Origin: Nonlabens ponticola
Lineage (GTDB): Bacteria > Bacteroidota > Bacteroidia > Flavobacteriales > Flavobacteriaceae
Assembly (NCBI RefSeq): GCF_003966335.1
Contig: NZ_CP034549.1
Span: 300,001-332,000, forward strand
Length of the DNA stretch: 32,000 nucleotides
Direction: 5' to 3'
This document shows, piece by piece, positions 846 through 24,996 of this stretch (position 1 is the stretch's first letter; every line of letters starts with the position of its first letter). The notes beneath the pieces are model-generated. The model saw nothing but the letters and a program-made list of their open reading frames with translations. It was not told where the DNA came from and ran no database searches. The position numbers and the translations under genes are program-made.

Positions 846-1462
846 TGCGTTGGTATCCAGATCGCATACCTGACTGGATATCATCGTTATTTCCTAATTA
901 CACTTGGCACAAAAACAGGTCAACTAAAACAATTTATTTGACCTTTGACGACGGGCCAACGCCTATAGCCACTAGTTATGTGCTAGAATTGCTAGACAAG
1001 TTTAATTTCAAGGCTACATTCTTTCTTATAGGTGATCGAGCACAGCGATATCCTGAATTAAAACAGCAATTAATAGATCATGGACACTCCATTGGGAATC
1101 ATACTCACAATCACCTGAACGCTTGGAAAACTTCAAATAACGAGTATCTAGATAATGTAGCTTTCGCGAAAGCTAACACCAGTAATAAATTATTCAGACC
1201 GCCGTATGGTCGGGTCAGACCAGGCATCACTAACGCCTTGATTAAGGAAGACTATGAGATTGTTTTGTGGGATGTATTGTCAGGCGATTTTGATGTTTCA
1301 AGAACAGCAGAAAGCTGTCTGAAAAATTTAATGAATGCCACTCGCAATGGTAGTATTATCGTTTTTCATGATAGTGATAAAAGCTATGAGAAATTGCAAA
1401 AAATCTTACCTAATTACTTCCGTTGGCTGAGAAATCGAGGATATAAAAGCGCTAGGCTTTAA
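845..1462 (+). CDS. Polysaccharide deacetylase family protein (NodB homology / CE4)
   Basis: CE4 motifs are present: LTFDDGP, HSIGNHTHNH and RPPYG. The ATG overlaps the upstream stop by 1 nt, which suggests translational coupling. Confidence 0.85.
   Translation: MRWYPDRIPDWISSLFPNYTWHKNRSTKTIYLTFDDGPTPIATSYVLELLDKFNFKATFFLIGDRAQRYPELKQQLIDHGHSIGNHTHNHLNAWKTSNNEYLDNVAFAKANTSNKLFRPPYGRVRPGITNALIKEDYEIVLWDVLSGDFDVSRTAESCLKNLMNATRNGSIIVFHDSDKSYEKLQKILPNYFRWLRNRGYKSARL
1158..1175. repeat. Copy 1 of the iterated palindrome, extended to 18 bp (TAGCTTTCGCGAAAGCTA), inside the CE4 deacetylase CDS
   Basis: Read directly from the sequence. The perfect 14-mer core is at 1160-1173 and is translated as V-AFAKA-N. 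Confidence 0.95.
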
Positions 1463-1463
1463 T

Positions 1464-1763
1464 CTAGCGTGCAAACTGATTGAGCAAGGAAATAAGTGAA
1501 CTACCATCTTGTAAACCGCTTTGACGCCATTTCATCTCACCATTTTTATAGATGATGATGGTAGGAAGGCCTTTGATACGCAATGCTTCAGACAACTGCG
1601 GGTTTTTATCTACATTAATCTTTATGATACGTGCCTTATCACCTACAGCGGCTGCCACATCTCTAAGCACTGGATGCATGCTAGTAGAATCGTCGTTCCA
1701 GTCTGTAAAAAAGTTGAATAATACAGGTACGTTTGTACTTATCAATTCACCAAATTTTGACAT
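1464..1763 (-). CDS. Thioredoxin-fold protein lacking the CxxC active site
   Basis: The 99-aa protein aligns by eye with classical Trx (..FFTDW-NDDS-..., KINVDKNPQL, GLPT cis-Pro loop, YKNGE). WCGPC is replaced by WNDDS and the protein contains no Cys at all. Confidence 0.8.
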   Translation of the reverse strand: MSKFGELISTNVPVLFNFFTDWNDDSTSMHPVLRDVAAAVGDKARIIKINVDKNPQLSEALRIKGLPTIIIYKNGEMKWRQSGLQDGSSLISLLNQFAR

Positions 1764-1854
1764 AATCGCCTTTTATTAGTAAAGTAAATGTAAGCAATAT
1801 CATCGATTTCGGTAATTCACATTATTGAATGCGCCGTTGATTGATCATTATTGA

Positions 1855-3078
1855 TTAACCTCGCTTTTTAAGTTTTATAACTGTAATTTCTGGCCAGATA
1901 CCAGCACGTCCAGAATAACCCAAAAAACCAAAACCACGATTCACATTCAAGAACCTGCCATATTCTTTATAGATACCAGCCCACTTTTTATACACAAACC
2001 AGGCAGGACTTAGTTTGATCCAGCCAGGAATCTCGATGCCCATTTGCATACCGTGCGTGTGACCGCTTAGGGTCAAGTGAAAATTAGTATCGTTTTCTTT
2101 GACCTGCGCATCCCAATGCGTTGGATCATGAGAAAGTAACACCTTGAAATCTTCATTTTGCAGTCCTTGTGATGCTTTTTCTAGATCACCATATTTTGGG
2201 AAACGGCCACCACCCCAATTTTGTACACCAACGATCTTTAAAGAATCTGCACCTCTATCGATGGATACATTCTCATCAAGCAATAATCGCCAGCCCATGT
2301 TCTTTTGAATGTCAAAAAGCTCTTGCAGGTTAGCTTGTTTTGCCTCTGGTGTTTCCCAGCTTGCATAATCGCCATAATCATGATTACCCAGTACAGAAAA
2401 GACACCATCGCTGGCAGTAAGCCTTGAGAAAATATCTTCCCAGCCGTACAACTCACTACTCACATTATTTACTAGATCACCTGTAAACAAAATGACGTCT
2501 GAAGCTTGTTTGTTGACTAGGTCGATCGCATATTTCACTTCTTCCTTATCATCAAAGGAACCCACATGAATATCACTAATCTGCGTGATTGTATAACCAT
2601 CAAATTGCTCAGGTAAATCATCAAAGCTAAGCTCATAATTGCGCACTTGATAATCATATTTCCCCTTAAATGCACCGTAAAAAATCGCTCCAAAAGGCAG
2701 TGCGGCAACACCCAATCCTAACATGGATAGAAACTTGCGCCTGCTAGGTAAAAAGCTACTGTTGCTAGCTGCATCTAAAGTCACGCGATTCCAGATTCCC
2801 GCAATCAGCCTATAAATGTCCTCACCTAGCATGAACAGGACAAAAACAACTTGTGCGACAAATACAGCGAGGAATAAAGTAATAGCAAAATCACGCGCAC
2901 TAGACGCTTGCGATCTATCTGGATTCAGGTAAAATTGCAATACGATATTCAGGATCACGAGAATGGTTGCCGCTAGATAAATCCATTTTGCCCAGTGACC
3001 ACGTGATAGCGTACGCACCAATTGAAATGCATAAAACTGAAAGCCAATAACGATTAGTAAGGTGATTATCCATCTCAT
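1855..3078 (-). CDS. Membrane-anchored metallophosphoesterase (calcineurin-like)
   Basis: The N-terminus has about 4 hydrophobic helices. Metallophosphoesterase motifs follow: SDIHVG, TGDLVN, GNHD and SGHTHG. Confidence 0.85.
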   Translation of the reverse strand: MRWIITLLIVIGFQFYAFQLVRTLSRGHWAKWIYLAATILVILNIVLQFYLNPDRSQASSARDFAITLFLAVFVAQVVFVLFMLGEDIYRLIAGIWNRVTLDAASNSSFLPSRRKFLSMLGLGVAALPFGAIFYGAFKGKYDYQVRNYELSFDDLPEQFDGYTITQISDIHVGSFDDKEEVKYAIDLVNKQASDVILFTGDLVNNVSSELYGWEDIFSRLTASDGVFSVLGNHDYGDYASWETPEAKQANLQELFDIQKNMGWRLLLDENVSIDRGADSLKIVGVQNWGGGRFPKYGDLEKASQGLQNEDFKVLLSHDPTHWDAQVKENDTNFHLTLSGHTHGMQMGIEIPGWIKLSPAWFVYKKWAGIYKEYGRFLNVNRGFGFLGYSGRAGIWPEITVIKLKKRG

Positions 3079-3189: not shown

Positions 3190-4068
3190 ATGACCATTAG
3201 AAAAAGATATATGCGTTTTTTCAGCACCATAATAGGTATCCTAGCCTTAACTATCACCTCATGCACTGCCGCAGACGATGCCGTATCAACAGCACCTATC
3301 ACCAACTTACCAGCCGCTATTGAGAAAAATGCAAGCTATGGTAATCATACACAACAAACCTATGATTTGTACCTACCTGCAAACCGTAAAGCAAATACCA
3401 CACAAACTATCGTACTTCTGCATGGTGGTAGTTGGGTAAGCGGTGATAAATCAAGCATGGACTTTATGGTACAGCGCATTCAATCCAGCTTACCCAATCA
3501 TGCCATCATTAATATGAACTATCGACTCGCAAATGGCAGTACGGTAAAGGCATTCCCTAATCAGTTAGAAGATATTGAATTGATGCTTGACACACTCCAG
3601 GAGCAAAGTGGCAGCTGGCAAATAAGTGATAAGACCACCTTGTTGGGTGTGAGCGCTGGCGCCCATCTATCGTTATTATATGCTGCAGCTTATGATGAGA
3701 GTGATCAGGTAAATAAGGTGATAAACATCGTAGGTCCTACAGATTTTACCGATGATTTCTATGCTGGTAATCCCAGTTTTCAATTTATGTTCAATGCGTT
3801 GGTCGATGTGCCTGCTTTAAACACTAATGATCCAGTGACTGCGGTAAGCCCAGCGCAACGTATCACCACCAGCATGCCTGCCGTGTTTAATTTCTACGGT
3901 AATCAAGATCGTCTTGTCGCCTTGAGCCAGCTAGAATCTCTGGAAAAAGCTCTTGACCAGTTTGCAATTCCCTATGAAAGCACCATTTATGATGGTGGTC
4001 ATGCTAACTGGAACGAGAGCCAGTTGCAGGATCTTGAGGACAAGATTAAAAGCTTTTTAGGTGGTTAG
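3190..4068 (+). CDS. Alpha/beta hydrolase (esterase/lipase type), probably a lipoprotein
   Basis: The signal peptide ends LTITSC (lipobox-like). An HGGSW oxyanion motif and a GVSAG nucleophile elbow are present, with a C-terminal GGHANW region. Confidence 0.8.
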   Translation: MTIRKRYMRFFSTIIGILALTITSCTAADDAVSTAPITNLPAAIEKNASYGNHTQQTYDLYLPANRKANTTQTIVLLHGGSWVSGDKSSMDFMVQRIQSSLPNHAIINMNYRLANGSTVKAFPNQLEDIELMLDTLQEQSGSWQISDKTTLLGVSAGAHLSLLYAAAYDESDQVNKVINIVGPTDFTDDFYAGNPSFQFMFNALVDVPALNTNDPVTAVSPAQRITTSMPAVFNFYGNQDRLVALSQLESLEKALDQFAIPYESTIYDGGHANWNESQLQDLEDKIKSFLGG

Positions 4069-4086
4069 AGGATTGATAATGATTAC

Positions 4087-4100
4087 GCTTTCGCGAAAGC
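4087..4100. repeat. Copy 2 of the iterated palindrome GCTTTCGCGAAAGC, intergenic
   Basis: Perfect 14-mer. Its left flank TAATGATTAC (4077-4086) is identical to the flank of the copy at 20293-20302. Confidence 0.95.
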
Positions 4101-4204: not shown

Positions 4205-7045
4205 TTGACAAACGACGGCACTGACGATAAACGACTGTTTTTACTGGATGCATATGCACTTATTTTTAGAGGATATTATGCGCTGATCAAGAATCCACGC
4301 ATCAATTCGCAAGGCATGGATACCAGCGCAATTATGGGTTTTACCAATTCGCTGTTTGACGTTATACGCCGTGAAAAGCCAGAATATCTGGCAGTAGCTT
4401 TTGACAAGGAAGGCAGCGCAGAGCGTACGGAGCTTTATGAAGATTATAAGGCCAATCGCGACGAGACACCTGAAGCCATACGCATCGCGATTCCTTACAT
4501 TCAACGCATTCTCAAGGCGATGCACATTCCTTATATCATGGAAGCCGGTATCGAGGCAGATGACCTGATAGGAACGCTGTCAAAACAAGCCGAAAAGGAA
4601 GGCTTTACCGTTTATATGGTGACACCAGACAAGGATTATGCTCAGCTGGTTTCAGAAAATATCTTTATGTATCGTCCAGCGCGCATGGGTAATGGTATTG
4701 AGATATGGGGCATTCCTGAAGTACAGAAACGCTTTGAAGTCGAGCGACCAGAGCAAGTCATTGATTATCTAGGTATGATGGGCGACGCTAGCGACAATAT
4801 TCCTGGACTGCCTGGCGTAGGCGATAAAACAGCCAAAAAATATCTCAAGGAATACGGCAGTATGGAAGCTTTGCTAGAAAACGCCGTAAATATTAAAGGA
4901 AAAATAGGTGAGAAAATCCGCGACAATGCAGATCTGGGCAGGCTTTCAAAACAACTCGCGACCATCAAGCTGGATTGCGACGTGACCTTCAATGCCAAAA
5001 ACTACACTCTGGACGATCCAGATGTCGAGGCCGTCCACGAGATCTTTGACGAGCTGGAATTCCGCAGGGCGAAGGAAACGCTGGCCAAGATTTTTTCAAA
5101 AGAATTAGTTACTGCTGGCTCAAGCGGTGTTGGTAGCTCTTCATCGAGTTCAGATACGGCTGGTACTGGACAATTTTCACTATTTGACGCTCCAGGATCA
5201 GGAACCAAGGCAGAGGCTCAAGCTACCGGCCGCCAGACTCTTGCCACGACAGATCACCTATATCAAGTCGTTCAAGAAGGCATGGGAACCAAGCTATTCT
5301 TGCAAAAACTGATGCAACAAACAAGTGTCTGTTTTGATACCGAGACTACTGGTCTGGATCCACTGGCTGCACAACTTGTTGGGATTGCCTTTTGTTGGGA
5401 GAAAGGCAAAGGATATTATCTGCCTTTTCCAGAAGATCGTGATGCTGCGCAAGCCATTGTTGACCAGCTTAAATCGTTCTTTGAGAGTACCGACATTGAG
5501 AAGATTGGGCAAAATTTAAAATACGACATCAAGGTGCTGGACAAGTATGGCGTTGATGTAAAGGGACCGCTTTTTGATACAATGCTAGCCCATTATTTGA
5601 TCAATCCAGACATGCGTCACAACATGGACATTCTGGCCGAAACCTACCTGAACTACACGCCACAATCCATCACAGAGTTGATTGGTAAAAAAGGCAAAAA
5701 CCAGAAATCCATGCGCGATGTAGACATCGAGCAGGTCAAGGAATATGCTGTCGAGGATGCCGACATCACTTACCAACTCAAACAACACTTTGCACCGGAG
5801 CTAAAGGCGGCTGGTACCGATAAACTTTTTGCAGATATCGAGATACCACTCTTGCAGGTACTGGCAGATATGGAGATCGAGGGCATAAACCTAGATGAGG
5901 ATTATTTGGGCACGCTTTCGCGAAAGCTAACTGAAGACATCGCATCATTACAGGAAAACATCTATAAGGAAGCAGGCGAAGAGTTTAACATCGGGTCGCC
6001 AAAACAACTGGGCGAGATTTTATTTGGGAAGATGAAGCTGGTAGATAAGCCTAAAAAGACCAAAACAGGACAATATTCTACCGCTGAAGATGTGCTGAGC
6101 TACCTAGCAAAAGACCATCAAATCATTGCTGACGTCCTCGAATACCGCGGACTTACTAAGCTACAGAGTACTTATGTAGACGCCTTGCCTAATCAGGTAA
6201 ATCCTGAAACGCAGCGCATCCATACCAATTACATGCAAACGGTTGCCGCTACAGGTCGTTTGAGTTCCACAGATCCCAACCTGCAAAATATCCCGATCAG
6301 AACCGAGCGTGGTCGCCAGGTACGCAAGGCATTTATACCTCGTGATGAAAATTACACGCTACTCGCTGCCGACTACTCGCAGATTGAATTACGCATTATC
6401 GCTGCCTTGAGTGAAGAAGATAACATGATGGAAGCCTTTAAAAGCGGTGCAGACATTCACGCATCTACCGCTGCCAAAGTTTTTGACGTGGCGATAGAAG
6501 ATGTGACGCGCGAGCAGCGCAGTAATGCCAAAACGGTCAACTTTGGGATTATCTATGGCGTATCGGCTTTTGGGTTGAGTAATCAAACAGATCTCGACCG
6601 CACAGAGGCCAAAGAACTCATCGATACATACTATAAAACATATCCAAAGCTGCGTGCCTACATGGATGATCAAGTAGCTTTTGCACGCGAGAATGGTTAT
6701 GTAGAAACCGTGCTGGGTCGTCGTCGCTACCTAAAAGACATCAATAGTTCCAATGGTGTAGTGCGAGGCGCAGCCGAGCGTAATGCTGTCAACGCGCCTA
6801 TCCAAGGAAGCGCGGCAGACATTATCAAAATTGCCATGATCAACATTCACAATAAGTTTGAGGAGCTCAACTGCAAGTCAAAAATGCTACTGCAGGTGCA
6901 TGATGAACTCGTTTTTGACATTCACAACGATGAGCTGGATGACATGAGAAAACTCATCCAGGAAGAAATGGAAAACGCCTATAAAATGAGCGTACCGTTA
7001 GATGTTGAAGTAGGAATGGGCGAGAATTGGTTGGAGGCTCATTGA
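4205..7045 (+). CDS. polA: DNA polymerase I (5'-nuclease, 3'-5' exonuclease and polymerase domains)
   Basis: The N-terminus reads KRLFLLDAYALIFRGYYA. Exo motifs are FDTETTGLD, NLKYD and YAVEDAD. Polymerase motifs are DYSQIELRIIA, RSNAKTVNFGIIYG and QVHDEL. The only in-frame start after the upstream stop (4181) is TTG at 4205. Confidence 0.95.
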   Translation: MTNDGTDDKRLFLLDAYALIFRGYYALIKNPRINSQGMDTSAIMGFTNSLFDVIRREKPEYLAVAFDKEGSAERTELYEDYKANRDETPEAIRIAIPYIQRILKAMHIPYIMEAGIEADDLIGTLSKQAEKEGFTVYMVTPDKDYAQLVSENIFMYRPARMGNGIEIWGIPEVQKRFEVERPEQVIDYLGMMGDASDNIPGLPGVGDKTAKKYLKEYGSMEALLENAVNIKGKIGEKIRDNADLGRLSKQLATIKLDCDVTFNAKNYTLDDPDVEAVHEIFDELEFRRAKETLAKIFSKELVTAGSSGVGSSSSSSDTAGTGQFSLFDAPGSGTKAEAQATGRQTLATTDHLYQVVQEGMGTKLFLQKLMQQTSVCFDTETTGLDPLAAQLVGIAFCWEKGKGYYLPFPEDRDAAQAIVDQLKSFFESTDIEKIGQNLKYDIKVLDKYGVDVKGPLFDTMLAHYLINPDMRHNMDILAETYLNYTPQSITELIGKKGKNQKSMRDVDIEQVKEYAVEDADITYQLKQHFAPELKAAGTDKLFADIEIPLLQVLADMEIEGINLDEDYLGTLSRKLTEDIASLQENIYKEAGEEFNIGSPKQLGEILFGKMKLVDKPKKTKTGQYSTAEDVLSYLAKDHQIIADVLEYRGLTKLQSTYVDALPNQVNPETQRIHTNYMQTVAATGRLSSTDPNLQNIPIRTERGRQVRKAFIPRDENYTLLAADYSQIELRIIAALSEEDNMMEAFKSGADIHASTAAKVFDVAIEDVTREQRSNAKTVNFGIIYGVSAFGLSNQTDLDRTEAKELIDTYYKTYPKLRAYMDDQVAFARENGYVETVLGRRRYLKDINSSNGVVRGAAERNAVNAPIQGSAADIIKIAMINIHNKFEELNCKSKMLLQVHDELVFDIHNDELDDMRKLIQEEMENAYKMSVPLDVEVGMGENWLEAH
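5914..5927. repeat. Copy 3 of the iterated palindrome, inside polA
   Basis: Perfect 14-mer, read as T-LSRKL-T in the polA frame. Confidence 0.95.
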
Positions 7046-7179: not shown

Positions 7180-8745
7180 TCACTCCACGATAAGCTCCAA
7201 TACTTGAGATCCTTGTTGTGAAACAACTCTTATAAAGTAAAGTCCAGATGATAAATTGCTTACATCGATGCTACTATTCTCAATGGTAGTGTTAATTCTG
7301 GATCCTGCGATATTATATAACTCAATCGTGGTGAGTTCTGCATTTGCTTTTACCTGTACGCTGTTGCTCGCTGGATTAGGATACAGTTTAACGGTCATCA
7401 CATCTAGATCATCAATACTTGCTGTTGATTCTTGGTAAACACGCACGTAGTCTATCATCATCTCGCCACGAGAAAAACTAGGCTCTACCGCTCCAGAGAT
7501 TCCGCCTAAAGCAACATTAAGCAATAAATACTGATCTGCATCAAACGGCCAGGTTCCCGCATCTTTTACTGTTGGATTATAAGTATAGAAAGGATCGCCA
7601 TCGATCATAAAAACAATTTTTTCTGGCGACCAATTAACCGAATACACATGAAAATTCTCTGACACATCACTTAATACGGTCGACTTAAAGTTCTTAGTGT
7701 TTCCTGAACATTGATCACAAGGTGTATGCAGCGCACTAGATACGTGATTGGTCTGTCCTAAGCCATGTTCCATGATATCAATTTCACCGCATGCCGGCCA
7801 GTTGGCAGTCCCATATTGCTCATCCCAAAAACCGCCATCTTCATTTATATTCTTACCCAATGTCCATATGGCGGGCCAGGTGCCTTCACCAGATGGTAAT
7901 TTGGCACGAACATCTACTCTTCCATAGGTGAAAGCAAATTTTGAATTGAGCCTTGCCGATGTGAAATCTTTTGTTTGATTTTGATCTGTGAATCTTTCTC
8001 GTTGCGCCACTATGTGTAAAAATCCATTTTCAACATAGGAATTTTCTATCCTATCTGTATAATGCTGTATCTCGCCATTGTACCAACTACCACCAGCAGG
8101 CAGCTGAGTTTGATGAAACCATTTATTACTGTCAATAGCATCCTTGCTGGTAGAATCAAATTCATCGCTCCAAACCAATCTATCATAAACTACATCTACT
8201 GGATCTGGATCCGGATCTGACACTGTGGAACCATCAATAATATCATCTAGGTAATACGTACCTGCTGTGTTCTCGCCTATATTGATGAATAAAGTGATGC
8301 GATTGTAAGAACCATTGGCGTTCACTACACCGCTACCATTACTGTATTGTGCGTTTGAAAAGTCAACCGATAGCTCTTGCCATGAATTAGCTGCAGCGCT
8401 TGTTGTAGTTTGCACCTCTACATCTGGGGCATTGCCTCGTTCTAGTTTTACCAAAACTGTATGACTATTATTATCGATGGAATAGAATTGGAAGTCTATT
8501 CTTTGATTAGTAGAAAGATCTATGGGCCGATTCAAGTCGAGGAAAAAACCTTGCGCAATCTCGCCGTTATTTTCAAAACGACCTACATCATTGTCAGCAT
8601 CGTCAGGATCAGTAATTACCGAAAAAGTGGATCCGGAGAATCCAATGAATTGATCCCTTTGATCATCAAAATCTAACGGCATTTCTTGCGCCGTTGAAAA
8701 TATAGAACTTAGGAATAATACAGATAGTGGCAGGAAGCGCATCAT
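7180..8745 (-). CDS. Secreted GH16 beta-glucanase (laminarinase-like) with an N-terminal CBM-like domain and a T9SS C-terminal sorting domain
   Basis: It has a signal peptide, a DPDPDP linker and the GH16 catalytic motif GEIDIMEH (ExDxxE), with WPAIWTLG upstream. The C-terminus (KLYPNPASNSVQV...LYNIAGSRI...SSGLYFIRV) is typical of Por/T9SS tails. Confidence 0.85.
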   Translation of the reverse strand: MMRFLPLSVLFLSSIFSTAQEMPLDFDDQRDQFIGFSGSTFSVITDPDDADNDVGRFENNGEIAQGFFLDLNRPIDLSTNQRIDFQFYSIDNNSHTVLVKLERGNAPDVEVQTTTSAAANSWQELSVDFSNAQYSNGSGVVNANGSYNRITLFINIGENTAGTYYLDDIIDGSTVSDPDPDPVDVVYDRLVWSDEFDSTSKDAIDSNKWFHQTQLPAGGSWYNGEIQHYTDRIENSYVENGFLHIVAQRERFTDQNQTKDFTSARLNSKFAFTYGRVDVRAKLPSGEGTWPAIWTLGKNINEDGGFWDEQYGTANWPACGEIDIMEHGLGQTNHVSSALHTPCDQCSGNTKNFKSTVLSDVSENFHVYSVNWSPEKIVFMIDGDPFYTYNPTVKDAGTWPFDADQYLLLNVALGGISGAVEPSFSRGEMMIDYVRVYQESTASIDDLDVMTVKLYPNPASNSVQVKANAELTTIELYNIAGSRINTTIENSSIDVSNLSSGLYFIRVVSQQGSQVLELIVE

Positions 8746-9979: not shown

Positions 9980-11056
9980 TCAATTTTGAATAGATAAAAT
10001 TCTAAGTAGTTTACTTACATCATCGATGGTATTAAAATGAGCAAAACTCACTCTAATACCTTCGCCACGCAGTGAACACAAAATGTTGTTTGACCTAAGG
10101 CGCTGCATCAACTCTACGTCACCCTTTATATTAATTATGGATGAGTGCGTTTTTCTTTTCGCTAGCTGTGAATTGATCATTCCTGTATCCAATAGATGTT
10201 GCCTTGCATGTGAAGCTAGCTTTGCCTGTTGCAATTCAATATTTCTCAAGCCGTAATCAGTCGCAAACTGAATGGCGTGTTGCAACCCACCATAAGCGAG
10301 CAAATCTTGATGACCTGGCTCAAAATGTCCTATAAAACTACCGCGATCCTTACTGCCTTGGACACTATTAAAACCAATATGTGCTGGCTTGATGCGCTCT
10401 ATCGCGTCCTCCTTAAAAATCATGTAAGCATTCCCATCGCCTGCATGTAACCATTTATAGCAACTTGCCGCTAGGATATCTATTTTGCTTTCGCGAAAGC
10501 TAAATTCAAAAGCGCCCGTAAACTGCGTACCGTCTGCAATCACAATCATATCAGGATATTGCACCTTGAGCTCGTCGATAAAATCAAGATCAATCTTGAT
10601 ACCAGTAATGTATTGAACCAGCGACAAAGCCAGCACATCTGGACGATGCTTGCGACAGGCGTCTGCAATGTGATCTTCTACCTTATGATCTAGCGTCGCA
10701 TAAACGCAATCGAAACCTCGCGCCTGCACTGGCCAATTGATCGATGGATAATCACCGTCAACGAGCAGGAATTTCAACGATTTATCCATGCCGTCCAGTA
10801 ACGTATTGAATCCTATGGAAAAGTTGGGAATCAGCGCGGTCAAATGCTCGTCTGCATCCAGGAACTGGGCTACTGTGGATCGCACATTGTCCATAAACCC
10901 AGCTGGATCGCTCCAGACTTCGCTACCTTCTATCGTCATGCGATGCAATAAATCGTTTTTGTACGCCTTTAAACCCGTACTCACCAGGCCGTGCGCCGCA
11001 GTATTGAGGTAAGTGTAGTTGTCCAGGACTGGATATAGCTCTTTTAATTTATGCAT
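9980..11056 (-). CDS. Aminotransferase class V-fold PLP-dependent enzyme (cysteine desulfurase/epimerase-like)
   Basis: The start reads YLNTAAHG. ADGTQ and SCYKW (candidate PLP lysine) motifs are present, and the length is about 358 aa. Confidence 0.75.
   Translation of the reverse strand: MHKLKELYPVLDNYTYLNTAAHGLVSTGLKAYKNDLLHRMTIEGSEVWSDPAGFMDNVRSTVAQFLDADEHLTALIPNFSIGFNTLLDGMDKSLKFLLVDGDYPSINWPVQARGFDCVYATLDHKVEDHIADACRKHRPDVLALSLVQYITGIKIDLDFIDELKVQYPDMIVIADGTQFTGAFEFSFRESKIDILAASCYKWLHAGDGNAYMIFKEDAIERIKPAHIGFNSVQGSKDRGSFIGHFEPGHQDLLAYGGLQHAIQFATDYGLRNIELQQAKLASHARQHLLDTGMINSQLAKRKTHSSIINIKGDVELMQRLRSNNILCSLRGEGIRVSFAHFNTIDDVSKLLRILSIQN
10487..10500. repeat. Copy 4 of the iterated palindrome, inside the aminotransferase CDS
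   Basis: Perfect 14-mer, read on the minus strand as F-SFRES-K. Confidence 0.95.
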
Positions 11057-11086: not shown

Positions 11087-11094
11087 TACATTTG
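11087..11094 (+). promoter_or_regulatory. Candidate Bacteroidota -7 box (TACATTTG, matching TAnnTTTG)
   Basis: It matches the known Bacteroidota sigma-A -7 consensus and lies 19 nt upstream of ATG 11113. It overlaps the TTG at 11092, which argues against that longer start. Confidence 0.35.
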
Positions 11095-11112
11095 ATTATA
11101 AAAGTAACTCAA

Positions 11113-12015
11113 ATGTTTAGCAACAAAAAAAAGCAAACACCTGGTATAGATCCAGATCAAAAAGAGATGATTGACAATGCCCGATTGCGTATCAAGCAAA
11201 AACGTGGGCTATTCTCTCATTTTATAGTATTCCTGGTAGGGTCTGTAGGGTTGATAGTGGTAAGCCAATTTTTCATAAAAAGTGAGATACCGCAATTACT
11301 GGGTATTGATTGGTGGATCTGGATCATTTTTGCATGGGCGCTTATTTTGCTGTATCACTTATTTAAAGTTTACGTGACCCAAAAACTTCTAGGACCAGAC
11401 TGGGAAAAACGACAGTATGACAAACTAGTAAGCAAGCAACAGGATCGCATCAATAAATTACAAGGCAAAGTAGAGAAAGATTATCCACTGCCTGATGCCA
11501 AGGTCGTCATCACACCCACAAAAAACTACCGAGAAGTCACCATGATTGCCGCGGCAGGCAACGATGACGGTTTGGGAAAAGATGGGCAGCTTGTATGGCA
11601 TTTACCTGATGATTTTAAACGCTTCAAGAGACTTACTACCGGGCATCATATTATCATGGGTCGCAAGACCTTTGACAGCTTTGATAAGCCGTTGCCTAAT
11701 CGCACGCACATCGTACTTACCAGAGATAAAAGCTACACCAGTGATCATGCCATCATTTGCCATGACATGGATACCGCGCTGGCAGCAGCTAGTGATGATC
11801 CACAACCATTTATCATAGGCGGCGGCGAGATCTACAAATTGGGCTTGCCCTATGCAGACAAGATCGAACTCACCAGAGTACACGGCTCTTTCACTACCGA
11901 CGCTCATTTTCCCGAAATTGATGAGTCCAAATGGAAACTGGTCAATAGCCTACACCACCCAGCAGACGATAAGCACAAGTACAGCTTTGACTATGAGACT
12001 TGGGTAAGGAAGTAG
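11113..12015 (+). CDS. folA: In-frame fusion of a 2TM membrane module with dihydrofolate reductase. The DHFR part could alternatively start at ATG 11542.
   Basis: The N-terminus has two hydrophobic helices (FSHFIVFLVGSVGLIVV, WWIWIIFAWALILLYHLF) followed by a charged linker. The C-terminus carries DHFR motifs: MIAAAGNDDGLGKDGQLVWHLPDDFKRFKRLTTGHHIIMGRKTFDSF and PFIIGGGEIY. There is no stop codon between the two parts. Confidence 0.75.
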   Translation: MFSNKKKQTPGIDPDQKEMIDNARLRIKQKRGLFSHFIVFLVGSVGLIVVSQFFIKSEIPQLLGIDWWIWIIFAWALILLYHLFKVYVTQKLLGPDWEKRQYDKLVSKQQDRINKLQGKVEKDYPLPDAKVVITPTKNYREVTMIAAAGNDDGLGKDGQLVWHLPDDFKRFKRLTTGHHIIMGRKTFDSFDKPLPNRTHIVLTRDKSYTSDHAIICHDMDTALAAASDDPQPFIIGGGEIYKLGLPYADKIELTRVHGSFTTDAHFPEIDESKWKLVNSLHHPADDKHKYSFDYETWVRK

Positions 12016-15805: not shown

Positions 15806-18565
15806 TTATTTGTTGGTATTAAATACGTCTTCAATTATTCTTGCCTGTCTTGCCTTTGATCTGGTTGCACTACCAGATGCTGGCGCGGCGTACATGTTTC
15901 TGGAGCATACGCGCCAGTTTCTTGTTTCTTCCATGTGCAACAATAGGTGTGCATAAGCTCCCATATTGCGCGGCTCTTCTTGAGCCCATACGATATCCTT
16001 GCTACCGTATTTCTTGATGGTCTTCTTGATATCTGCCACTGGTAGCGGGAACAATTGTTCTACTCTTACTAGAGCAACGTCGTTACGATCATGTTCTTCT
16101 CTATATTCCAGTAGGTCATAGTAGAATTTTCCACTGGTGAATACTAGGGTTTTAGCTTTCGCGAAAGCGTCACCATCAACATCAATCACCTCTTTAAAAC
16201 TACCTTTTGTAAACTCCTCAATCGGGCTCACTGCACGTGGCGACCTCAATAACGATTTAGGGGTAAACACGACTAGTGGCTTGCGGTAATTGACCAACAT
16301 CTGGCGTCTCAACAGGTGAAACATGTTGGCTGGCGTGGTACAATTTGCCATAAACATATTGTCGCGTGCACACAGTTGTAAGTAACGCTCCATGCGGGCA
16401 CTACTATGTTCTGCGCCTTGACCTTCATAACCGTGTGGCAACAGCATCACGAGACCATTCTGGTTTTTCCATTTGTCCTCACCAGCACTGATGTACTGGT
16501 CAATCATGATTTGCGCACCGTTTGAGAAATCACCAAATTGTGCTTCCCATATCGTGAGCGTTTCTGGCTGTGCCATCGCATAACCGTACTCAAAACCTAC
16601 CACCGCATATTCTGACAGGTGTGAGTTATAAATCTCCATCTTTCCATCTGCATCCAGGTGGTTGTGTAGGATAAACTCGTTCTCGTGATTCTCTGACTTG
16701 ACCACCGCATGACGGTGAGAGAACGTTCCGCGCTCTACATCTTGTCCACTCATGCGCACATTGTAGCCATCCTGCATCAAGCTACCGTAGGCAAGATGCT
16801 CGCCCATGGCCCAATCCATCTTGTTGTCATCAAACATTTGCTGTCTAGACTCCACAATTTTCTTGATCTTGCGTATGAAGTTTTGATCTTCTGGCAGTTG
16901 GGAAATTACCTTAGTAATCTCCTGTAATTTTTTCTTTTCAACGCCCGTTTTGACTTTTTTCATCATGGCGTCCTCGGTAGCGGTCTCATAACCATCCCAT
17001 TCATCCTGCATGAACGGTGTGATGATGGTATTTTCCATCTGTCGTGAGGTAGCTAGCTCGTCTTCAAGACGGTCTTTGTAGACTTTCTCAAGCTCTTTTA
17101 CCTTGCCTTTATCAATGACATTTTCCTTGAGCAACTTGTCGGCATAAATATCACGCGAGTTTTTATGCTTGCTAATTGCTTTATACAATTGTGGTTGGGT
17201 AAATCTAGGCTCATCACCTTCATTATGACCGTACTTTCTATATCCTAATAGGTCAATAAACACATCCTTGCCAAATTCCATACGGTAATCCAGCGCAAAG
17301 TTCATCGCGTGTACTACAGCCTCGGCATCGTCTGCATTGACGTGAAGTACTGGCGATAACGTAACCTTAGCAATATCTGTGGAATAAGTAGATGATCGAC
17401 CATCCAGATAGTTGGTAGTAAAACCTACCTGGTTATTCACTACTAGGTGAATGGTACCAGCAGTTTTGTAGGCCTCGAGTTGTTCCATTTGAATCACCTC
17501 ATAAACGATACCTTGACCTGCAATAGCAGCATCACCGTGCAATACGATAGGCAAGACCTTGCTGGCATCATCTGGTGTGTGCATGTCTTGTTTGGCTCTG
17601 GTAATACCTTCAACAACAGCACCTACTGTTTCTAGGTGCGATGGATTGGGAACAATATTAATATTAATGTTGTTGCCGTTATCTGTCTTGCGCTTACTAG
17701 TATAACCCAAGTGATATTTTACATCACCATCAAAAATGTCCTGCTCATAATCCTTACCATCAAACTCTGAAAAAATGTCTTTTACTGGCTTACCAAAAAT
17801 ATTAGTCAATACATTCAATCGGCCACGGTGAGCCATTCCTAACACAAACTGGTCAACACCTTTATCGGCAGCATTCTCGATGAGAGAATCCAGTGCTGGA
17901 ATAAGTGACTCATTACCTTCTAGTGAGAAACGCTTTTGACCTACATATTTGGTATGCAGGAATGATTCAAAAGAAACGGCCTCGTTAAGCTTCTTGAGAA
18001 TCTGTACTTTTTGATCTTTATTAAAGTCTGGATGATTATTGTTGCGGTGCAACCAACTCTGGATCCACTTTACCTGTTCTGGTGAGCGCACATACATGTA
18101 CTCTACACCTATACTCTCACAATACACCTGCTTGAGGTGCGATATAATATTTTTAAGGCTGGTTTTACCGAGTCCTACCAGCTCGCCGCTTTCAAACTCT
18201 GTCGATAGATCTGCATCGCTCAATCCAAAATTTTCCAGATCCAACGTAGGCTGATATTGACGACGCTTGCGCACTGGATTGGTTTGTGTGAACAAATGGC
18301 CGCGTGTGCGGTAGCCATCGATCAATTGTACTACTTGAAACTCCTTACGCATCTGGTCTGGCACGCCTACAGATTGCTGGTCGCCAGCATTATCTCGATA
18401 AACTACCTGCGTCTCGCCATCGCCAGCAGACTCCATCCCAAAATCAAAGCCTTGAAAAAAGGCACGCCACGACGGCTCGACCTGATCTGGATTTATTAAA
18501 TATTCATCGTAAAGTTGTGCAAAGTAGGCAGTGTGTGCTGCGTTCAGAAAAGAAAATCTATCCAT
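15806..18565 (-). CDS. sucA: 2-oxoglutarate dehydrogenase E1 component
   Basis: The 919-aa protein starts [53 protein letters not shown] and the C-terminal E1 signature region are present. Its stop lies 4 nt before the sucB start. Confidence 0.95.
16155..16168. repeat. Copy 5 of the iterated palindrome, inside sucA
   Basis: Perfect 14-mer, read on the minus strand as D-AFAKA-K. Confidence 0.95.
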
Positions 18566-19237: not shown

Positions 19238-20170
19238 ATGCAAATGAATAGAATATTAATCTTCCTCGTGATAGGAATCACTTTTGCTTCTTGTAAACAA
19301 GGTAATGAAGAAAAAGCAGGACAAACCACACGAGAGACTGAATTCAAAAAAGTTGTTCGCGATGATTATCAGCTTTACAAACCAGCCAGTGAAATCAAGG
19401 CTGTTTTAATCCTTTTTGGCGGCTACCCAGAAGATGCAGAAGGCATTAAAAGAGAATTCCCGATTCTTGAGGATGCCAGAAATAACAGCATCGCAGTGAT
19501 AATGTCCAACTACAACCAAAAGTTGTGGCTAGAGGAAAATGAAAAACGTCAACTCGCAACCAGTCTGCAGGATATTTTTGAAGAACATCATTTACCTAGT
19601 GAAAATGTAGTTGTTGGAGGTTATTCTAGCGGCGGCGTGGTGAGCCTATTGATCAGTGATTTTATTATAGGACACAAACAATTTTATATCGACCCAAAAG
19701 GAGTGTTCATCGTTGACTCGCCTATTGATCTAGAGGTATTATATAGAACTGCCGAGAAGAATATTGAAAGAGACTTCTCTGAACCTTCCATTCAAGAAAG
19801 CACCTGGCTATTAAAAGAACTAGGAAGCGGATTAGGTAATCCAGATGAACATATTGAAAATTATGAGCAAAGTTCTATTTACACCTATAGCACTGGTAAT
19901 ATTTCTAATTTGAAGAAATTAAAAAAGACCAAAATCAGACTTTATACGGAGCCAGATACCCTTTGGTGGCAAGAAAATAGAATGGCCTCTTACGATGAGA
20001 CCAATGCATTTTATATCCAGGATCTGCACAGGATTCTCACCCAACAAGGCTATAACAAAGTAGAATACATTCCAACTGTCGATAAAGGATATAGAGCAAA
20101 TGGAATGAGGCATCCACATAGCTGGTCTATTGTCGATAAGGCCGACTTGATAGACTGGATTCTAAATTGA
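19238..20170 (+). CDS. Lipoprotein with an alpha/beta-hydrolase-like fold (putative esterase)
   Basis: It has a lipobox (ITFASC), a GGYSSGG nucleophile-elbow-like motif and a late His (RHPHSW). Confidence 0.55.
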   Translation: MQMNRILIFLVIGITFASCKQGNEEKAGQTTRETEFKKVVRDDYQLYKPASEIKAVLILFGGYPEDAEGIKREFPILEDARNNSIAVIMSNYNQKLWLEENEKRQLATSLQDIFEEHHLPSENVVVGGYSSGGVVSLLISDFIIGHKQFYIDPKGVFIVDSPIDLEVLYRTAEKNIERDFSEPSIQESTWLLKELGSGLGNPDEHIENYEQSSIYTYSTGNISNLKKLKKTKIRLYTEPDTLWWQENRMASYDETNAFYIQDLHRILTQQGYNKVEYIPTVDKGYRANGMRHPHSWSIVDKADLIDWILN

Positions 20171-20298: not shown

Positions 20299-20320
20299 TT
20301 ACGCTTTCGCGAAAGCGTAA
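20299..20320. repeat. Copy 6 of the iterated palindrome, the longest form: a 22-bp perfect palindrome TTACGCTTTCGCGAAAGCGTAA, intergenic
   Basis: Read directly from the sequence. The core is at 20303-20316. The left flank TAATGATTAC (20293-20302) is shared with copy 2. Confidence 0.95.
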
Positions 20321-20486: not shown

Positions 20487-21545
20487 ATGAAAAAGATATT
20501 TTTAAGCATGCTTGCCCTTTCAATGGCGATCACAGCATGTAATGACAGTAAGAAAAAAGACAACGCGTCAAATGATACCGAGTATAATGAAGACGCTACT
20601 GGCGATTCAACATCTGAAGATATGGATACTCAAGAAATGAGTCGTGAGGATGCAGAGCGTATGAGTAAAGATATGCGTGATAATGTCGAGGTAGATGACG
20701 AGGACAATGTGACGATAAAAAGTTTTGCCGAGTATGGTGAATTGCAAACGCAGGTAAGAAACTTATCTACTAAGCCTGATTTGCGCGAGGACATGGTAGG
20801 TATGGAAGCATATAATGCCTTTGAAAAATTTGTGGCTAATATGCCTGCATATTTAAAGACAAATGCTGTCATGAAAGAGGTACAAGACACACGTGTAGCC
20901 ATGGATCGCTTTAAGGCAGATCTTGAGGATGAAAGCGTGTCAAAAGAAACGATGAAGAGACACCTCATGAAAGTAGAGACTGCAGTTGAAGATCTTAATG
21001 ACGAGATTGCTAGTGTACGTCAAGGTCTTGACGCGAGTGATATTGATTATACGGCGTATAATGATTTTGCAACCAATGTAAATTATGGTGATAACGGCCT
21101 AATCTACATCACAGGATTTGATGCTTTTAATCAAGCACAAAGAGATTACATCTTGATGAGAGATGGTGATATGGATGAGAAGATGAAGTATGAGACGTCA
21201 CTTAAAAAAGATTTCAAAGCACTAGCGCAAAACATTCCATCTTACCTACTAGTAGATGATGTAGAAGATGAAATTGAAGATGTACAGGAAGAAATTGCAT
21301 ACTATGAGAAGTACAAAAATGACAAATCAGTAGATGCAGAGCAACAATTAGAAAACCTTGAAGAAATCGAGGAAGCTATGTATGATCTTAACAGAGAGCT
21401 TGTGAAAGCAAGAAAAAAATATGTAGATAACCGCAAGGATGCCATTGAGGAATTCATGGAAGAATTTAATGACGATGATGGCCGCAGCATGGAAGCACGC
21501 TTAAAAGATGCTACCGAAGAATATAATGAGGAGATTGAGGACTAA
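20487..21545 (+). CDS. Highly acidic lipoprotein with an internal duplication (hypothetical)
   Basis: It has a lipobox (AITACN) and is very D/E-rich. Two related modules centre on ..FVANMPAYL.. and ..LAQNIPSYL.., about 131 residues apart. Confidence 0.6.
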   Translation: MKKIFLSMLALSMAITACNDSKKKDNASNDTEYNEDATGDSTSEDMDTQEMSREDAERMSKDMRDNVEVDDEDNVTIKSFAEYGELQTQVRNLSTKPDLREDMVGMEAYNAFEKFVANMPAYLKTNAVMKEVQDTRVAMDRFKADLEDESVSKETMKRHLMKVETAVEDLNDEIASVRQGLDASDIDYTAYNDFATNVNYGDNGLIYITGFDAFNQAQRDYILMRDGDMDEKMKYETSLKKDFKALAQNIPSYLLVDDVEDEIEDVQEEIAYYEKYKNDKSVDAEQQLENLEEIEEAMYDLNRELVKARKKYVDNRKDAIEEFMEEFNDDDGRSMEARLKDATEEYNEEIED

Positions 21546-21878: not shown

Positions 21879-21880
21879 GG

Positions 21881-22938: not shown

Positions 22939-22968
22939 AGGAAACTTTGATCGTTTCTAAAGTTTCCT
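22939..22968. promoter_or_regulatory. Perfect 10-bp inverted repeat AGGAAACTTT-N10-AAAGTTTCCT, a candidate TetR operator
   Basis: Read directly from the sequence. It lies 29 nt upstream of the TetR ATG and just upstream of a TAnnTTTG box. Confidence 0.45.
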
Positions 22969-22973
22969 ATACG

Positions 22974-22981
22974 TATTTTTG
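22974..22981 (+). promoter_or_regulatory. Candidate -7 box (TATTTTTG) for the TetR-efflux operon
   Basis: It matches TAnnTTTG and lies 16 nt upstream of ATG 22997. Confidence 0.35.
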
Positions 22982-22996
22982 CCGCTCAATTAAGCA

Positions 22997-23611
22997 ATGG
23001 AAGTCAAAGAACGCATACTAGAAGAATCCATGGATCTGTTTCTCACGCTGGGATTCAAGAGTGTTACCATGGACGAGATTGCCTCGCGATTGGGTATGAG
23101 CAAGAAGACCTTGTACACCCATTATCGTACTAAGGGTTCTCTGGTGGATGCAGCATCCGTTAATTTTTGTGAGCATGTATGCAACGGCGTGGACGACATT
23201 AGCGCGTCAGAAAGTGCCAATCCCATCGAGGAACTTTATGATGTCAAAAAGTTTGTCATGCAGCAGTTGCGCGGTGACAATACCTCACCCGTTTACCAAC
23301 TCAAAAAATATTATCCAGAGGTACACAGAAAAGTCGAACTCATGCAGTTTGACCACATGGACAAATGCATCAAACGCAATGTAGAGCGCGGCATTGAACA
23401 AGGATTTTATCGCGACAATATTGATGCGGCCTTTGTGGCGCGCATGTACTTTGTAGGCATTCAAGGCATCAAGAACATCAGCATTTTCCCTGCTGAGGAT
23501 TTCCCAGTGAATGACCTCTACGATCAATATCTAGAGTACCACTTGCGCGGCATCGTGACACCAGCTGGCCGTAAAATATTAAATGAACTAACCGACACAA
23601 ACCACGAGTAA
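22997..23611 (+). CDS. TetR/AcrR family transcriptional regulator
   Basis: The N-terminal HTH reads ILEESMDLFLTLGFKSVTMDEIASRLGMSKKTLYTHY. Its stop overlaps the TolC start (TAATG). Confidence 0.9.
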   Translation: MEVKERILEESMDLFLTLGFKSVTMDEIASRLGMSKKTLYTHYRTKGSLVDAASVNFCEHVCNGVDDISASESANPIEELYDVKKFVMQQLRGDNTSPVYQLKKYYPEVHRKVELMQFDHMDKCIKRNVERGIEQGFYRDNIDAAFVARMYFVGIQGIKNISIFPAEDFPVNDLYDQYLEYHLRGIVTPAGRKILNELTDTNHE

Positions 23612-24996
23612 TGAGAAGTACAATTATAACGGTGATGATTTTGTTTGGTTACGCTTTCGCGAAAGCGCAATCCACCACAGACACTACTGCACCGCAATCC
23701 TACAGCTTTACCCTAGAAGAGGCGATCAATTATGCGCTGGAGAATAATTATCAGGCTATTAATGCCAAAAGGGATATCGCTAAAGCGCTGAAGCAAAAGT
23801 GGGAAACAACATCGACCGGATTACCGCAAATCAATGGCGAGGCTGGCTATAATTACAATATCAAGATTCCTCAAACAGCCTTACCTGCACAAATTATTGA
23901 TCCAGATGCACAGCCAGGCACTTTTGTCGCGGTACCATTTGCTCCACGTCAAAGTGCTAATCTCACTGCAACACTTACGCAACTCATTTTTGACGGTTCT
24001 TATATCGTGGCACTTGAGGCATCACAGACTTTTCTGGATTTTAGCGAGAATGCCAACAATAAGACAAAACTAGAGGTGCGCAAAGGCGTCATCAATGCCT
24101 ACGGCGGCGTATTGCTGGCTCAAGAAAATGTGGATATTCTATCTAAGAATCTAGAGAACCTACAGGAAAACCTCAACGAGACTGAAAAGATTTTTGAAAA
24201 CGGTCTCGCCGAAGAAGAAGATGTAGAGCAATTACAAATTACAGCACTGCAATTACAAAACCAACTTAACAGCGCACAGCGACAGGTAGAGATTGCCATG
24301 GACATGTTTCAGCTAGCGCTAGGCATCGACCTTGCGGCAGATGTTGCGTTGAGCGAGGACCTTGAAAGTCTTGCTGTAAAAACCATCGATCTGGCCTTGA
24401 CTGGTCAAAACCTGGACATGGAACAAGCAGTAGATTACCAGATCGCCTATAATTTTACTGAACAACGCAGGCTGGAATACAAGTTGGAACGTGCTAAGGC
24501 GCTGCCTAGAGTAAGCGGTTTTGTGAATTATGGTACACAGGCGTTTGACGAGGATTTTGTCTTTTTTGACAGCAGTACGCCATGGTTCCAGCAATCTACT
24601 GCTGGTTTAAGTATTCAAGTACCTATTTTTAGTTCGCTAGGTCGCACCGCTCGCACCCAACGTGCAAAGATTGCCTACGATCAGGCTCTTACCGACTTTG
24701 AGCGCACCCAACAAGAGATCAAACTCAATTATGAGAGTGCACAAAATCAATATCAACTGGCCATTGACACCTATTTGACTAACAAGAAAAACCTTGCCCT
24801 TGCAGAGCGCGTTGAGAACAAAAACCAAATAAAATTTCAAGAAGGTATTGCCAGCAGTTTTGAATTGCGACAGGCGCAAACACAACTGTATGCCGCACAA
24901 GGCGATTACTTGAACAGCATGTTTCAAGTAATCACCAATAAGGCAGCACTAGAAACCATATTGAATACACCAGAATATATTATCACAAGAGACTAA
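23611..24996 (+). CDS. TolC family outer-membrane efflux protein
   Basis: It has a signal peptide, a LEEAINYALENNYQ start and a two-repeat coiled architecture. Its operon context with MFP and RND genes also fits. Confidence 0.88.
   Translation: MRSTIITVMILFGYAFAKAQSTTDTTAPQSYSFTLEEAINYALENNYQAINAKRDIAKALKQKWETTSTGLPQINGEAGYNYNIKIPQTALPAQIIDPDAQPGTFVAVPFAPRQSANLTATLTQLIFDGSYIVALEASQTFLDFSENANNKTKLEVRKGVINAYGGVLLAQENVDILSKNLENLQENLNETEKIFENGLAEEEDVEQLQITALQLQNQLNSAQRQVEIAMDMFQLALGIDLAADVALSEDLESLAVKTIDLALTGQNLDMEQAVDYQIAYNFTEQRRLEYKLERAKALPRVSGFVNYGTQAFDEDFVFFDSSTPWFQQSTAGLSIQVPIFSSLGRTARTQRAKIAYDQALTDFERTQQEIKLNYESAQNQYQLAIDTYLTNKKNLALAERVENKNQIKFQEGIASSFELRQAQTQLYAAQGDYLNSMFQVITNKAALETILNTPEYIITRD
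23652..23667. repeat. Copy 7 of the iterated palindrome (16-bp CGCTTTCGCGAAAGCG), inside the TolC signal peptide codons
   Basis: The core is at 23653-23666, read as Y-AFAKA-Q. This is the predicted AxA signal-peptidase site. Confidence 0.95.

Follow-up and report, generated by a model that had tools for sequence, protein, structure and literature searches.

The palindromic 14-mer GCTTTCGCGAAAGC occurs as seven perfect copies in a 32,000-nucleotide stretch of the Nonlabens ponticola genome (RefSeq assembly GCF_003966335.1, contig NZ_CP034549.1, positions 300,001 to 332,000; hereafter the window). Analysis of these copies and of their counterparts in related loci indicated that the motif is very probably a signal of the class that includes highly iterated palindrome 1 (HIP1) and the uptake signal sequence (USS), present in hundreds of copies in some marine Flavobacteriaceae, made by substitution, and kept unchanged. 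The copies begin at positions 1160, 4087, 5914, 10487, 16155, 20303, and 23653, and no version with one or two mismatches was present in the window. Dinucleotide-preserving shuffles gave an expectation of 0.14 matches with up to two mismatches, and none of 100 shuffles reached seven. An original prediction made from this DNA placed five of the seven copies inside coding sequences, where they would be read in three frames as AFAKA, LSRKL, or SFRES; translation confirmed these readings, and the other two copies (4087 and 20303) are intergenic. The gene identities that it had proposed were also confirmed with NCBIfam: polysaccharide deacetylase family (CE4), DNA polymerase I (polA), class V aminotransferase-like (cysteine desulfurase family), 2-oxoglutarate dehydrogenase E1 (sucA), and TolC family. 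The seven copies, together with a split eighth copy, are as follows.

1160..1173, perfect copy in the CE4 polysaccharide deacetylase open reading frame (ORF) 845-1462 (+), read as AFAKA (amino acids 106-110)
4087..4100, perfect intergenic copy, 19 bp past the esterase-like ORF 3190-4068 and upstream of polA
5914..5927, perfect copy in the polA ORF 4205-7045 (+), read as LSRKL
10487..10500, perfect copy in the class V aminotransferase-like ORF 9980-11056 (-), read as SFRES
16155..16168, perfect copy in the sucA ORF 15806-18565 (-), read as AFAKA (amino acids 800-804)
20303..20316, perfect intergenic copy between ORFs 19238-20170 and 20487-21545
23653..23666, perfect copy in the TolC-family ORF 23611-24996 (+), read as AFAKA (amino acids 15-19) at the end of the hydrophobic region of the signal peptide
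30145..30180, split intergenic copy, consisting of GCTTTCGCG, a 21-nt GC-rich mini-hairpin (CCTGCC-TATCGGCGA-GGCAGG), and AAAGC-G(taa)

An exact-match scan of one genome per species (596 Gb), from which 8-kb genome loci were chosen for holding a copy, yielded at least 120 stretches with an exact match. Among the matches listed, approximately 91 were from Flavobacteriaceae, including roughly 33 from Dokdonia, 24 from Nonlabens (BBFL7 included), and 26 from uncultured Flavobacteriaceae, and many of the listed Flavobacteriaceae stretches contained two to three copies per 8 kb. The 29 listed stretches from other phyla held one copy each, which chance would permit in 596 Gb. As an unselected sample we analyzed 80 polA-anchored metagenomic loci not picked for the motif. 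Twelve of them contained it (29 copies in 193 kb), and no copy was found in the remaining 68, which comprise 1.12 Mb of Flavobacteriaceae-like DNA with polA 68-77% identical to that of the window. The density, with the window included, was 36 copies per 225 kb, or one per 6.3 kb, and that of the window alone was one per 4.6 kb. The motif is thus present about once per 5-7 kb in Nonlabens, Dokdonia, and some related lineages, which extrapolates to roughly 450-650 copies per genome. Base composition gives an expectation of ~1.5e-9 per position and a calculated enrichment of ~10^5-fold. An artefact was rejected, given that the motif recurs in frame across many independent assemblies. Lineage relationships were taken from polA alone, and on a neighbour-joining tree of this single gene, the deep nodes of which are poorly resolved, the motif-positive loci formed four separate groups.

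Comparison of orthologous sites showed that copies arise in place by nucleotide substitution, without a change in length, and not by insertion. At the polA LSRKL site, 81 orthologues were of equal length with no indel. The ancestral peptide at this site is S-L-S-x-x-L (TCG CTT TCN GAA GAC CTN), with the left half-site already in existence, and "RK" was found only in the three carriers of the perfect 14-mer (the window and the loci labelled L157 and L166) and in none of 78 noncarriers. The polA sequences of L157 and L166 are only 74% identical to that of the window, and closer motif-positive relatives (82-84%) do not have this copy. At a second polA site, L124 and L125 encode RFRES compared with KFEEM or KLEEG in relatives, a difference of approximately 8 nt and three amino acids within the 14-mer. 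At a third, 15 of the 68 lineages without the motif also have the peptide RLSRKL but specify it with different codons (AGG CTT TCA AGA AAG CTG; CGA CTC TCC CGA AAA CTG), and the 14-mer itself is present only in the motif-positive L135. The nucleotides are therefore lineage-specific, whereas the peptide is not. The claim of the original prediction that the constraint acts on nucleotides and not on the peptide was thereby supported, as was its exclusion of ordinary protein conservation, under which motif-free taxa would share both the peptide and its codons.

The other genic copies were gained in a similar manner. The CE4 copy lies in a hypervariable loop, is absent from nine orthologues, and shows no indel relative to the closest of them, and the AFAKA of the sucA copy stands in place of KVDQV or QADQV in orthologues, again with no indel. 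Alignments of CE4, sucA, and TolC were gap-free across the motif, with a hypervariable peptide replaced without a change in length, a result that agrees with the earlier suggestion that copies settle where the peptide is tolerated. No indel was apparent at the aminotransferase site or in the sucA-sucB spacer either. Orthologous positions that lack the motif match it at only ~4-11 of 14 bases. A rare near-motif intermediate was provided by the perfect copy at L123:7768, for which the orthologous L122 position (79% identity) is an 11/14 match and represents either a nascent or a decaying copy. Gains were thus shown to occur at positions where the peptide varies freely or where the motif peptide is even useful, as at the AxA ends of signal peptides.

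Existing copies were shown to stay perfect across 25-30% DNA divergence. When motif-positive loci were aligned in pairs (69-89% identity), the orthologue was perfect at 26 of 52 sites, compared with 5.7% of control 14-mers drawn from these same alignments; the orthologue pairs in this count are not independent. The TolC 14-mer is intact at the same position in L057 (~72% DNA identity), with the surrounding signal peptide having diverged. The same codons of the aminotransferase carry the motif in L121, L123, and L164 (proteins ~48% and DNA ~67-70% identical), and the corresponding site of the motif-free L180 encodes FDFENS. The original prediction had proposed an alignment of polA, sucA, aminotransferase, and TolC orthologues as a check, and its interpretation withstood this comparison.

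The loss of maintenance was apparent in the sister group of L135. This locus shares 92% polA identity with L153 and L163, and the sister group contains no copies in ~61 kb. In the sucA-sucB spacer, the flanks of L135 and its sisters are ~93% identical and the length is unchanged, with the motif position occupied by the relics GTTTTAACTAAAGA (9/14) in L153 and GCGTACGCGATAGA (10/14) in L163. These relics mismatch the motif at different positions, and their ancestor therefore had a match of at least 13/14, the pattern expected when maintenance is lost and independent decay follows. No alternative "dialect" palindrome was found in the loci of motif-free relatives that were searched, and the L163 relic TCGCGTACGCGA was unique. 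A 12-bp palindrome, TTTGGCGCCAAA, was observed once in each of six motif-negative polA loci and is probably one conserved orthologous site, not a dispersed motif.

The spacing of the copies was not random. The shortest of 76 inter-copy intervals within loci was 856 bp. No interval was <800 bp, compared with 15.5 expected for uniform placement (P < 2e-4), and seven were <1500 bp, compared with 27 expected for uniform placement of the same site numbers. Given that short intervals are missing, the copies repel each other, which is the opposite of the clustering of repetitive extragenic palindromes (REPs) and bacterial interspersed mosaic elements (BIMEs). Intervals in the window ranged from 1.8 to 5.7 kb, with a coefficient of variation of 0.36 (P = 0.01).

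The anatomy of the unit was derived from as many as 180 copies, pooled across the window and related loci, with ORFs called crudely from stop to stop (at least 100 amino acids). The conserved unit is wider than 14 nt and is the 16-mer CGCTTTCGCGAAAGCG. C occupies position -1 in 79% of half-sites (1.28 bits), the full 16-mer is present in 120 of 180 copies, and one of the two extensions is present in another 46. T predominates at positions -3 and -4, so that the consensus is TT[A/C]C-core-G[T/G]AA, or weak TTAC/GTAA shoulders, and the complete 22-mer is rare (6/180). The ~25 nt located 5' of the core on each strand are C-poor (0.03-0.13 vs 0.19) and G/T-rich, with background regained by approximately -35, and the 3' flank is A-rich. 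Intergenic copies and genic copies of each of the three frames showed this signature, which was weak at the tightly constrained polA sites. Flank skew at the sucA copy of the window was 0.68, compared with 0.48 in the motif-free orthologue, and at the only nine alignable gain or loss sites the mean difference was +0.03 (P = 0.30). The signature could reflect extended low-specificity recognition, or it could be a C>T/A>G footprint of single-strand exposure of the strand whose 3' end faces the core.

The flanks do not form a longer stem. Beyond +-4, arm complementarity with own compared with shuffled flanks gave z values of -1.0 and -0.6; own flanks therefore pair no better than foreign ones, and a longer hairpin or miniature inverted-repeat transposable element (MITE) was rejected on this basis. 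The hairpin of the core is weak, at -1.9 kcal/mol for the 14-mer to -4.3 kcal/mol for the 16-mer. Isolated half-sites (GCTTTCG) are not enriched outside the motif and CGCG and TCGCGA are not depleted there, which led us to reject half-site binding and restriction avoidance, respectively. Perfect copies outnumbered one-mismatch copies by 144 to 13 in 652 kb, and the mismatches were spread over all positions with no bias toward the ends.

Tabulation of frame and peptide usage, which the original prediction had proposed genome-wide, placed 136 of the 180 pooled copies (76%) inside ORFs in all three frames (AFAKA, 65; [RS]FRESx, 34; xLSRKx, 37) and 44 (24%) outside ORFs of at least 100 amino acids. 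The position of the TolC copy at a signal-peptide end was found to generalise. After two false positives were discounted, ~10 of 65 AFAKA copies (~15%) were located at putative signal-peptide ends of the type h-region|AFAKA|Q/Y/E, far above the share of coding sequence made up by such sites. Hydrophobic (T-rich) codons precede these sites and polar (A/C-rich) codons follow them, in agreement with the flank preference. The 52 intergenic copies with two assignable neighbours were mostly between co-directional genes (39), with ten between divergent and three between convergent genes. A terminator or promoter was rejected, given the absence of a consensus match at three intergenic copies, the A-rich 3' flank, and the presence of only 3 of 52 copies between convergent genes.

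Matches in viral contigs were mostly single copies without the C/G extension. Several low-GC viral contigs from IMG/VR (L289, L253, L222, L236, L286, and L314/L317) nevertheless contained two to three typical copies, and PHROGs identified the multi-copy contigs as genuine phages (portal, major head, prohead protease, terminase), with copies inside protease and HNH genes. The cultured lytic Nonlabens phage P12024S (L319), for which the motif status of the host strain is not known, contained no copy in 35.7 kb even at two mismatches, and blastn found no cultured phage with the motif. At one end of a Nonlabens-like metagenomic contig (L121:1-1955) lies a tandem array, not of the CRISPR type, with a ~163-nt unit (about 9-12 copies, 79-97% matches).

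Individual copies in the window differ in their surroundings. The CE4 copy is embedded in the perfect 18-bp palindrome TAGCTTTCGCGAAAGCTA, and the copy at 20303..20316 is part of the full 22-bp palindrome TTACGCTTTCGCGAAAGCGTAA. The copy upstream of polA (4087..4100) has the context gaTTAC-core-Tgac with strongly keto-rich, C-free flanks (K/M 0.76, C/G 0.00), and a copy upstream of polA was also present in L121, L122, L123, L141, L156, and L184. The base adjoining the core is A/T (AGC…GCT) in 6 of 14 half-sites of N. ponticola, compared with 9% A in the pooled set, and GCTTTCGCGAAAGCTAA recurs among the window copies, so that a species-level flank preference, or "dialect", may exist. Split copies such as that at 30145..30180 are rare, with three in 878 kb of motif-positive DNA (window, L044:474, and L047:2281) and none in 1.12 Mb of motif-negative DNA. 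GC-rich CCTGCC…GGCAGG hairpins, of which the window example is at 30154, were also observed at L007:2906 and 3277, L039:3180, L046:5107, L157:2330, L155:11270, and L134:9086, in motif-positive and motif-negative Flavobacteriaceae loci alike, and may constitute a separate small hairpin family.

The motif shares many properties with HIP1 (GCGATCGC). Both are perfect, CpG-centred palindromes that are hugely over-represented, lineage-restricted, spread by substitution, and found in all reading frames as well as in intergenic DNA. Both show conservation at orthologous sites far above that of controls and a nonrandom spacing (PMC5861425), and some related lineages lack the motif in each case (PMC4390886). 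The motif is at most an analogue of HIP1, however, given that its sequence is unrelated and that its hosts are Bacteroidota, not cyanobacteria. Its core is 14-16 bp instead of 8 bp, a specificity beyond that of any known methylase, and its density of ~1 per 5-7 kb compares with up to more than one HIP1 per gene. It further differs from HIP1 in the rarity of one-mismatch copies, with mismatches evenly spread instead of end-biased, in the ~25-nt strand-asymmetric flank signature, in the lack of a known cognate methyltransferase, and in the lack of an alternative palindrome in motif-free relatives. The USS of Pasteurellaceae and the DNA uptake sequence (DUS) of Neisseriaceae are also present in hundreds of genomic copies, in several frames, and at poorly conserved residues (PMC2817400), and they share with the motif a core with a weaker extended flank, lineage specificity, and compatibility with molecular drive. 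The analogy with HIP1 and uptake signals drawn in the original prediction is therefore apt with respect to conservation at orthologous sites, the preference for poorly conserved residues, and nonrandom spacing.

With regard to function, we tentatively favour preferential uptake or recombination, or both, of conspecific DNA in natural transformation. According to this proposal, GCTTTCGCGAAAGC would form the centre of a duplex-DNA signal with dyad symmetry, ttaC-GCTTTCGCGAAAGC-Gtaa, preceded on each strand by ~25 nt that are C-poor and G/T-rich. Nonlabens, Dokdonia, and a few related lineages would actively accumulate and maintain this signal. Given the dyad symmetry of the 16-mer, the weakness of its hairpin, and the absence of any enrichment of half-sites, we infer that a symmetric (dimeric), lineage-specific factor would read the palindrome as double-stranded DNA. 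On the question of DNA or RNA, which the original prediction had left open, the evidence favours duplex DNA. Each DNA segment that bears a copy would gain a transmission advantage to which a nearby second copy would add little, and such a benefit of one copy per segment would explain the repulsion. Biased gene conversion (molecular drive) would then propagate perfect copies, somewhat to the detriment of host proteins, and gains at such a cost without an organism-level benefit for each site are best explained by biased transmission of conspecific DNA. Biased transmission is established for USS and DUS, and USS are found where residues are poorly conserved (PMC2817400). Such transmission is now proposed for HIP1 also (bioRxiv 10.1101/2024.09.10.611283 and 10.64898/2026.06.24.733823). 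HIP1 sites show conservation and quasi-periodicity (PMC5861425), and HIP1 enhances natural transformation (bioRxiv 10.1101/2024.09.10.611283) and co-varies with DNA-uptake genes (bioRxiv 10.64898/2026.06.24.733823). Natural competence with a preference for own DNA has been described within Flavobacteriaceae, the family to which the motif hosts belong, with Riemerella columbina as the sole family-level precedent, and no uptake sequence has yet been identified there (PMC7965970). The lack of a copy in 35.7 kb of a lytic Nonlabens phage is also in keeping with this proposal.

Several observations weigh against uptake or recombination of conspecific DNA. Neither a factor nor a receptor, methylase, or competence gene came to light, and whole genomes were not scanned. 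To our knowledge, competence has not been reported in Nonlabens or Dokdonia. Classical USS and DUS are asymmetric, 9-12 nt in length, and 4-6 times denser, with many one-mismatch copies, whereas the motif is palindromic, 14-16 nt in length, and almost never imperfect, with no known receptor. Within the 14-mer, orthologues can be as many as 8 nt apart with no intermediates sampled, which is awkward for stepwise drive. Some genuine phage contigs have two to three copies inside structural genes, which is compatible with any process that acts on resident DNA. A mobile methylase or nuclease gene would account just as well for the patchy placement of motif-positive loci on the polA tree, and the flank signature is left without an explanation. 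Copies might also be written in a single step by a templated short-patch conversion activity, which would explain the 8-nt jumps, the near absence of imperfect copies, and the strand-asymmetric flank footprint.

The copies might instead be architectural sites for a dimeric chromosome-organising protein (ParB/Noc/RacA/SlmA-like or another nucleoid-associated protein), with organism-level selection at each site, although we consider this rather unlikely. The 16-22-bp dyad symmetry, a footprint of ~60-70 bp with flanks, the even spacing, and the strong site conservation suit such a role, and the periodicity of HIP1 has prompted the proposal that it functions in chromosome structure (PMC5861425). 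The recognition sites of ParB (parS), Noc (NBS), RacA (ram), and SlmA (SBS) are likewise 14- to 16-bp perfect or near-perfect palindromes that are often genic and read by dimers. The TTTC..GAAA arms of the motif loosely resemble parS and NBS. These systems make use of tens of degenerate-tolerant sites clustered in particular chromosome regions, however, whereas the motif is evenly scattered in hundreds of copies, has a register unlike that of parS, and is almost never imperfect. Selection at each site would also need to prevail over amino-acid changes in polA and sucA, close relatives manage entirely without the motif, and copies are found inside phage structural genes. A methylation-coupled repair ratchet, as in Elhai's model for HIP1 (PMC4390886), would consist of a sequence-specific methyltransferase and mismatch or very-short-patch repair that perfects near-matches and repairs decay, with no need of a benefit to the segment. 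The CGCG/TCGCGA centre is typical of methylase targets, copies are gained by substitution only, and the sharp ratio of perfect to imperfect copies suits active correction. Frequent gain and loss of the genes concerned would match the patchy distribution and the rapid decay after loss, and the presence of copies in resident phage DNA but not in a lytic phage also speaks for this model. Such a ratchet is nonetheless unlikely, given that a specificity of 14-16 bp is far beyond known methylases or Vsr-type enzymes, that one-mismatch variants occur at all positions with no end bias, that inner CGCG and TCGCGA sites are ordinary outside the motif, and that a purely mutational process predicts neither the repulsion between copies nor an 8-nt jump from unrelated sequence. 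Conservation of HIP1 sites has also been taken as evidence of selection, not of biased repair (PMC5861425).

A recombination or repair nuclease or a defence system might recognise the motif as a Chi-like marker of "self" and protect or repair the DNA that bears it, a contribution that has been suggested for HIP1 (bioRxiv 10.1101/2024.09.10.611283). With Chi the motif shares the status of an over-represented, lineage-specific oligomer with a plausible benefit per segment, located mostly in coding DNA. Its density of ~1 per 5-7 kb is similar to that of Chi in Escherichia coli (~1 per 5 kb), and the location in coding DNA in all frames, the even spacing, the decay after loss, and the absence from lytic phage but presence in other phage contigs also fit. 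Known Chi sequences, however, are 5-8 nt in length, asymmetric, co-oriented with replication, and read as single-stranded DNA, whereas a perfect 14- to 16-bp palindrome with dyad flanks has no orientation; no nuclease was identified, and we regard this explanation as improbable. An element that acts in RNA, such as a small transcript hairpin serving as a processing or binding site, would account for a palindrome that appears in the transcript of either strand and for the location of most copies in transcribed DNA. It is nevertheless very improbable in view of the weak hairpin without arm complementarity beyond +-4, the 10 of 52 intergenic copies between divergent genes, the occurrence in any frame and at any place in genes, and the lack of any Rfam match in the window at gathering thresholds; for HIP1, too, an RNA role was not found (PMC5861425). 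Extremely improbable, finally, is a self-inserting miniature mobile element of the type of REP with its REP-associated tyrosine transposase (RAYT), a MITE, or a Rickettsia palindromic element (RPE). Dispersed identical copies and the single window copy with a nested 21-nt hairpin insertion would be in keeping with such an element, and the TTAC beside the hairpin recalls the target and cleavage tetranucleotide of IS608. REPs and BIMEs are also short palindromic repeats in hundreds of copies with an adjoining conserved tetranucleotide, but REPs are extragenic, imperfect, and endowed with stable stems and form paired clusters near a RAYT gene, whereas the motif is 76% genic, perfect in all copies, and weak as a hairpin, and its copies repel each other. 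We therefore rejected REP/RAYT, with ordinary genes (patatin-like, PGK, TolC, DEAD-box helicase) and no RAYT-like gene between the closest pairs. RPEs resemble the motif as palindromic repeats that are translated within protein-coding genes. They are, however, insertions of 100-150 bp that lengthen the protein, and insertion of a MITE or RPE was rejected, given the absence of any indel or length change relative to empty orthologous sites at every site examined.

Two genes near the window copies may be recorded. ORF 11092-12015 (+) encodes a 2TM domain (amino acids 29-113) and a complete dihydrofolate reductase domain (amino acids 149-306) and is either a real fusion or two neighbouring genes joined by the mechanical ORF call. 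Positions 7180-8745 (-) encode a GH16 glycoside hydrolase with a COOH-terminal type IX secretion sorting domain (Por_Secre_tail), which is ordinary for marine Flavobacteriaceae.

A literature search did not find the 14-mer or anything relevant that links highly iterated palindromes with Flavobacteria or Dokdonia, and the motif is apparently undescribed so far. It belongs to the class of HIP and USS but is found in a different phylum, has an unrelated sequence twice the length of HIP1, is much sharper, and has a new flank signature. The maintenance of highly iterated palindromes has been debated for approximately thirty years on the basis of HIP1, which is nearly universal in one phylum and so offers few natural contrasts. 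The motif provides an independent case in cultivable marine hosts, with a doubled core length that renders the chance background essentially zero and with sharp presence or absence between close relatives, such as perfect copies compared with decayed relics at 92% polA identity. The gene responsible should therefore be findable by phylogenetic profiling, and the uptake, repair, and architecture hypotheses are directly testable. The motif may also serve as a lineage marker for binning and for the assignment of phage contigs to hosts.

For the biology of these bacteria, the motif reveals a DNA-level process that overwrites residues of essential enzymes (polA and sucA) and recurrently supplies AxA signal-peptidase motifs. 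That it is the first sequence-specific DNA uptake or recombination signal in Bacteroidota, a 16-bp palindrome read by a dimeric receptor, is a somewhat doubtful proposition. If it were true, better genetic tools for motif-bearing bacteria would become possible, and the motif would stand as an independent second case beside HIP1, with "iterated palindromes" acting as self-DNA tags for natural transformation.

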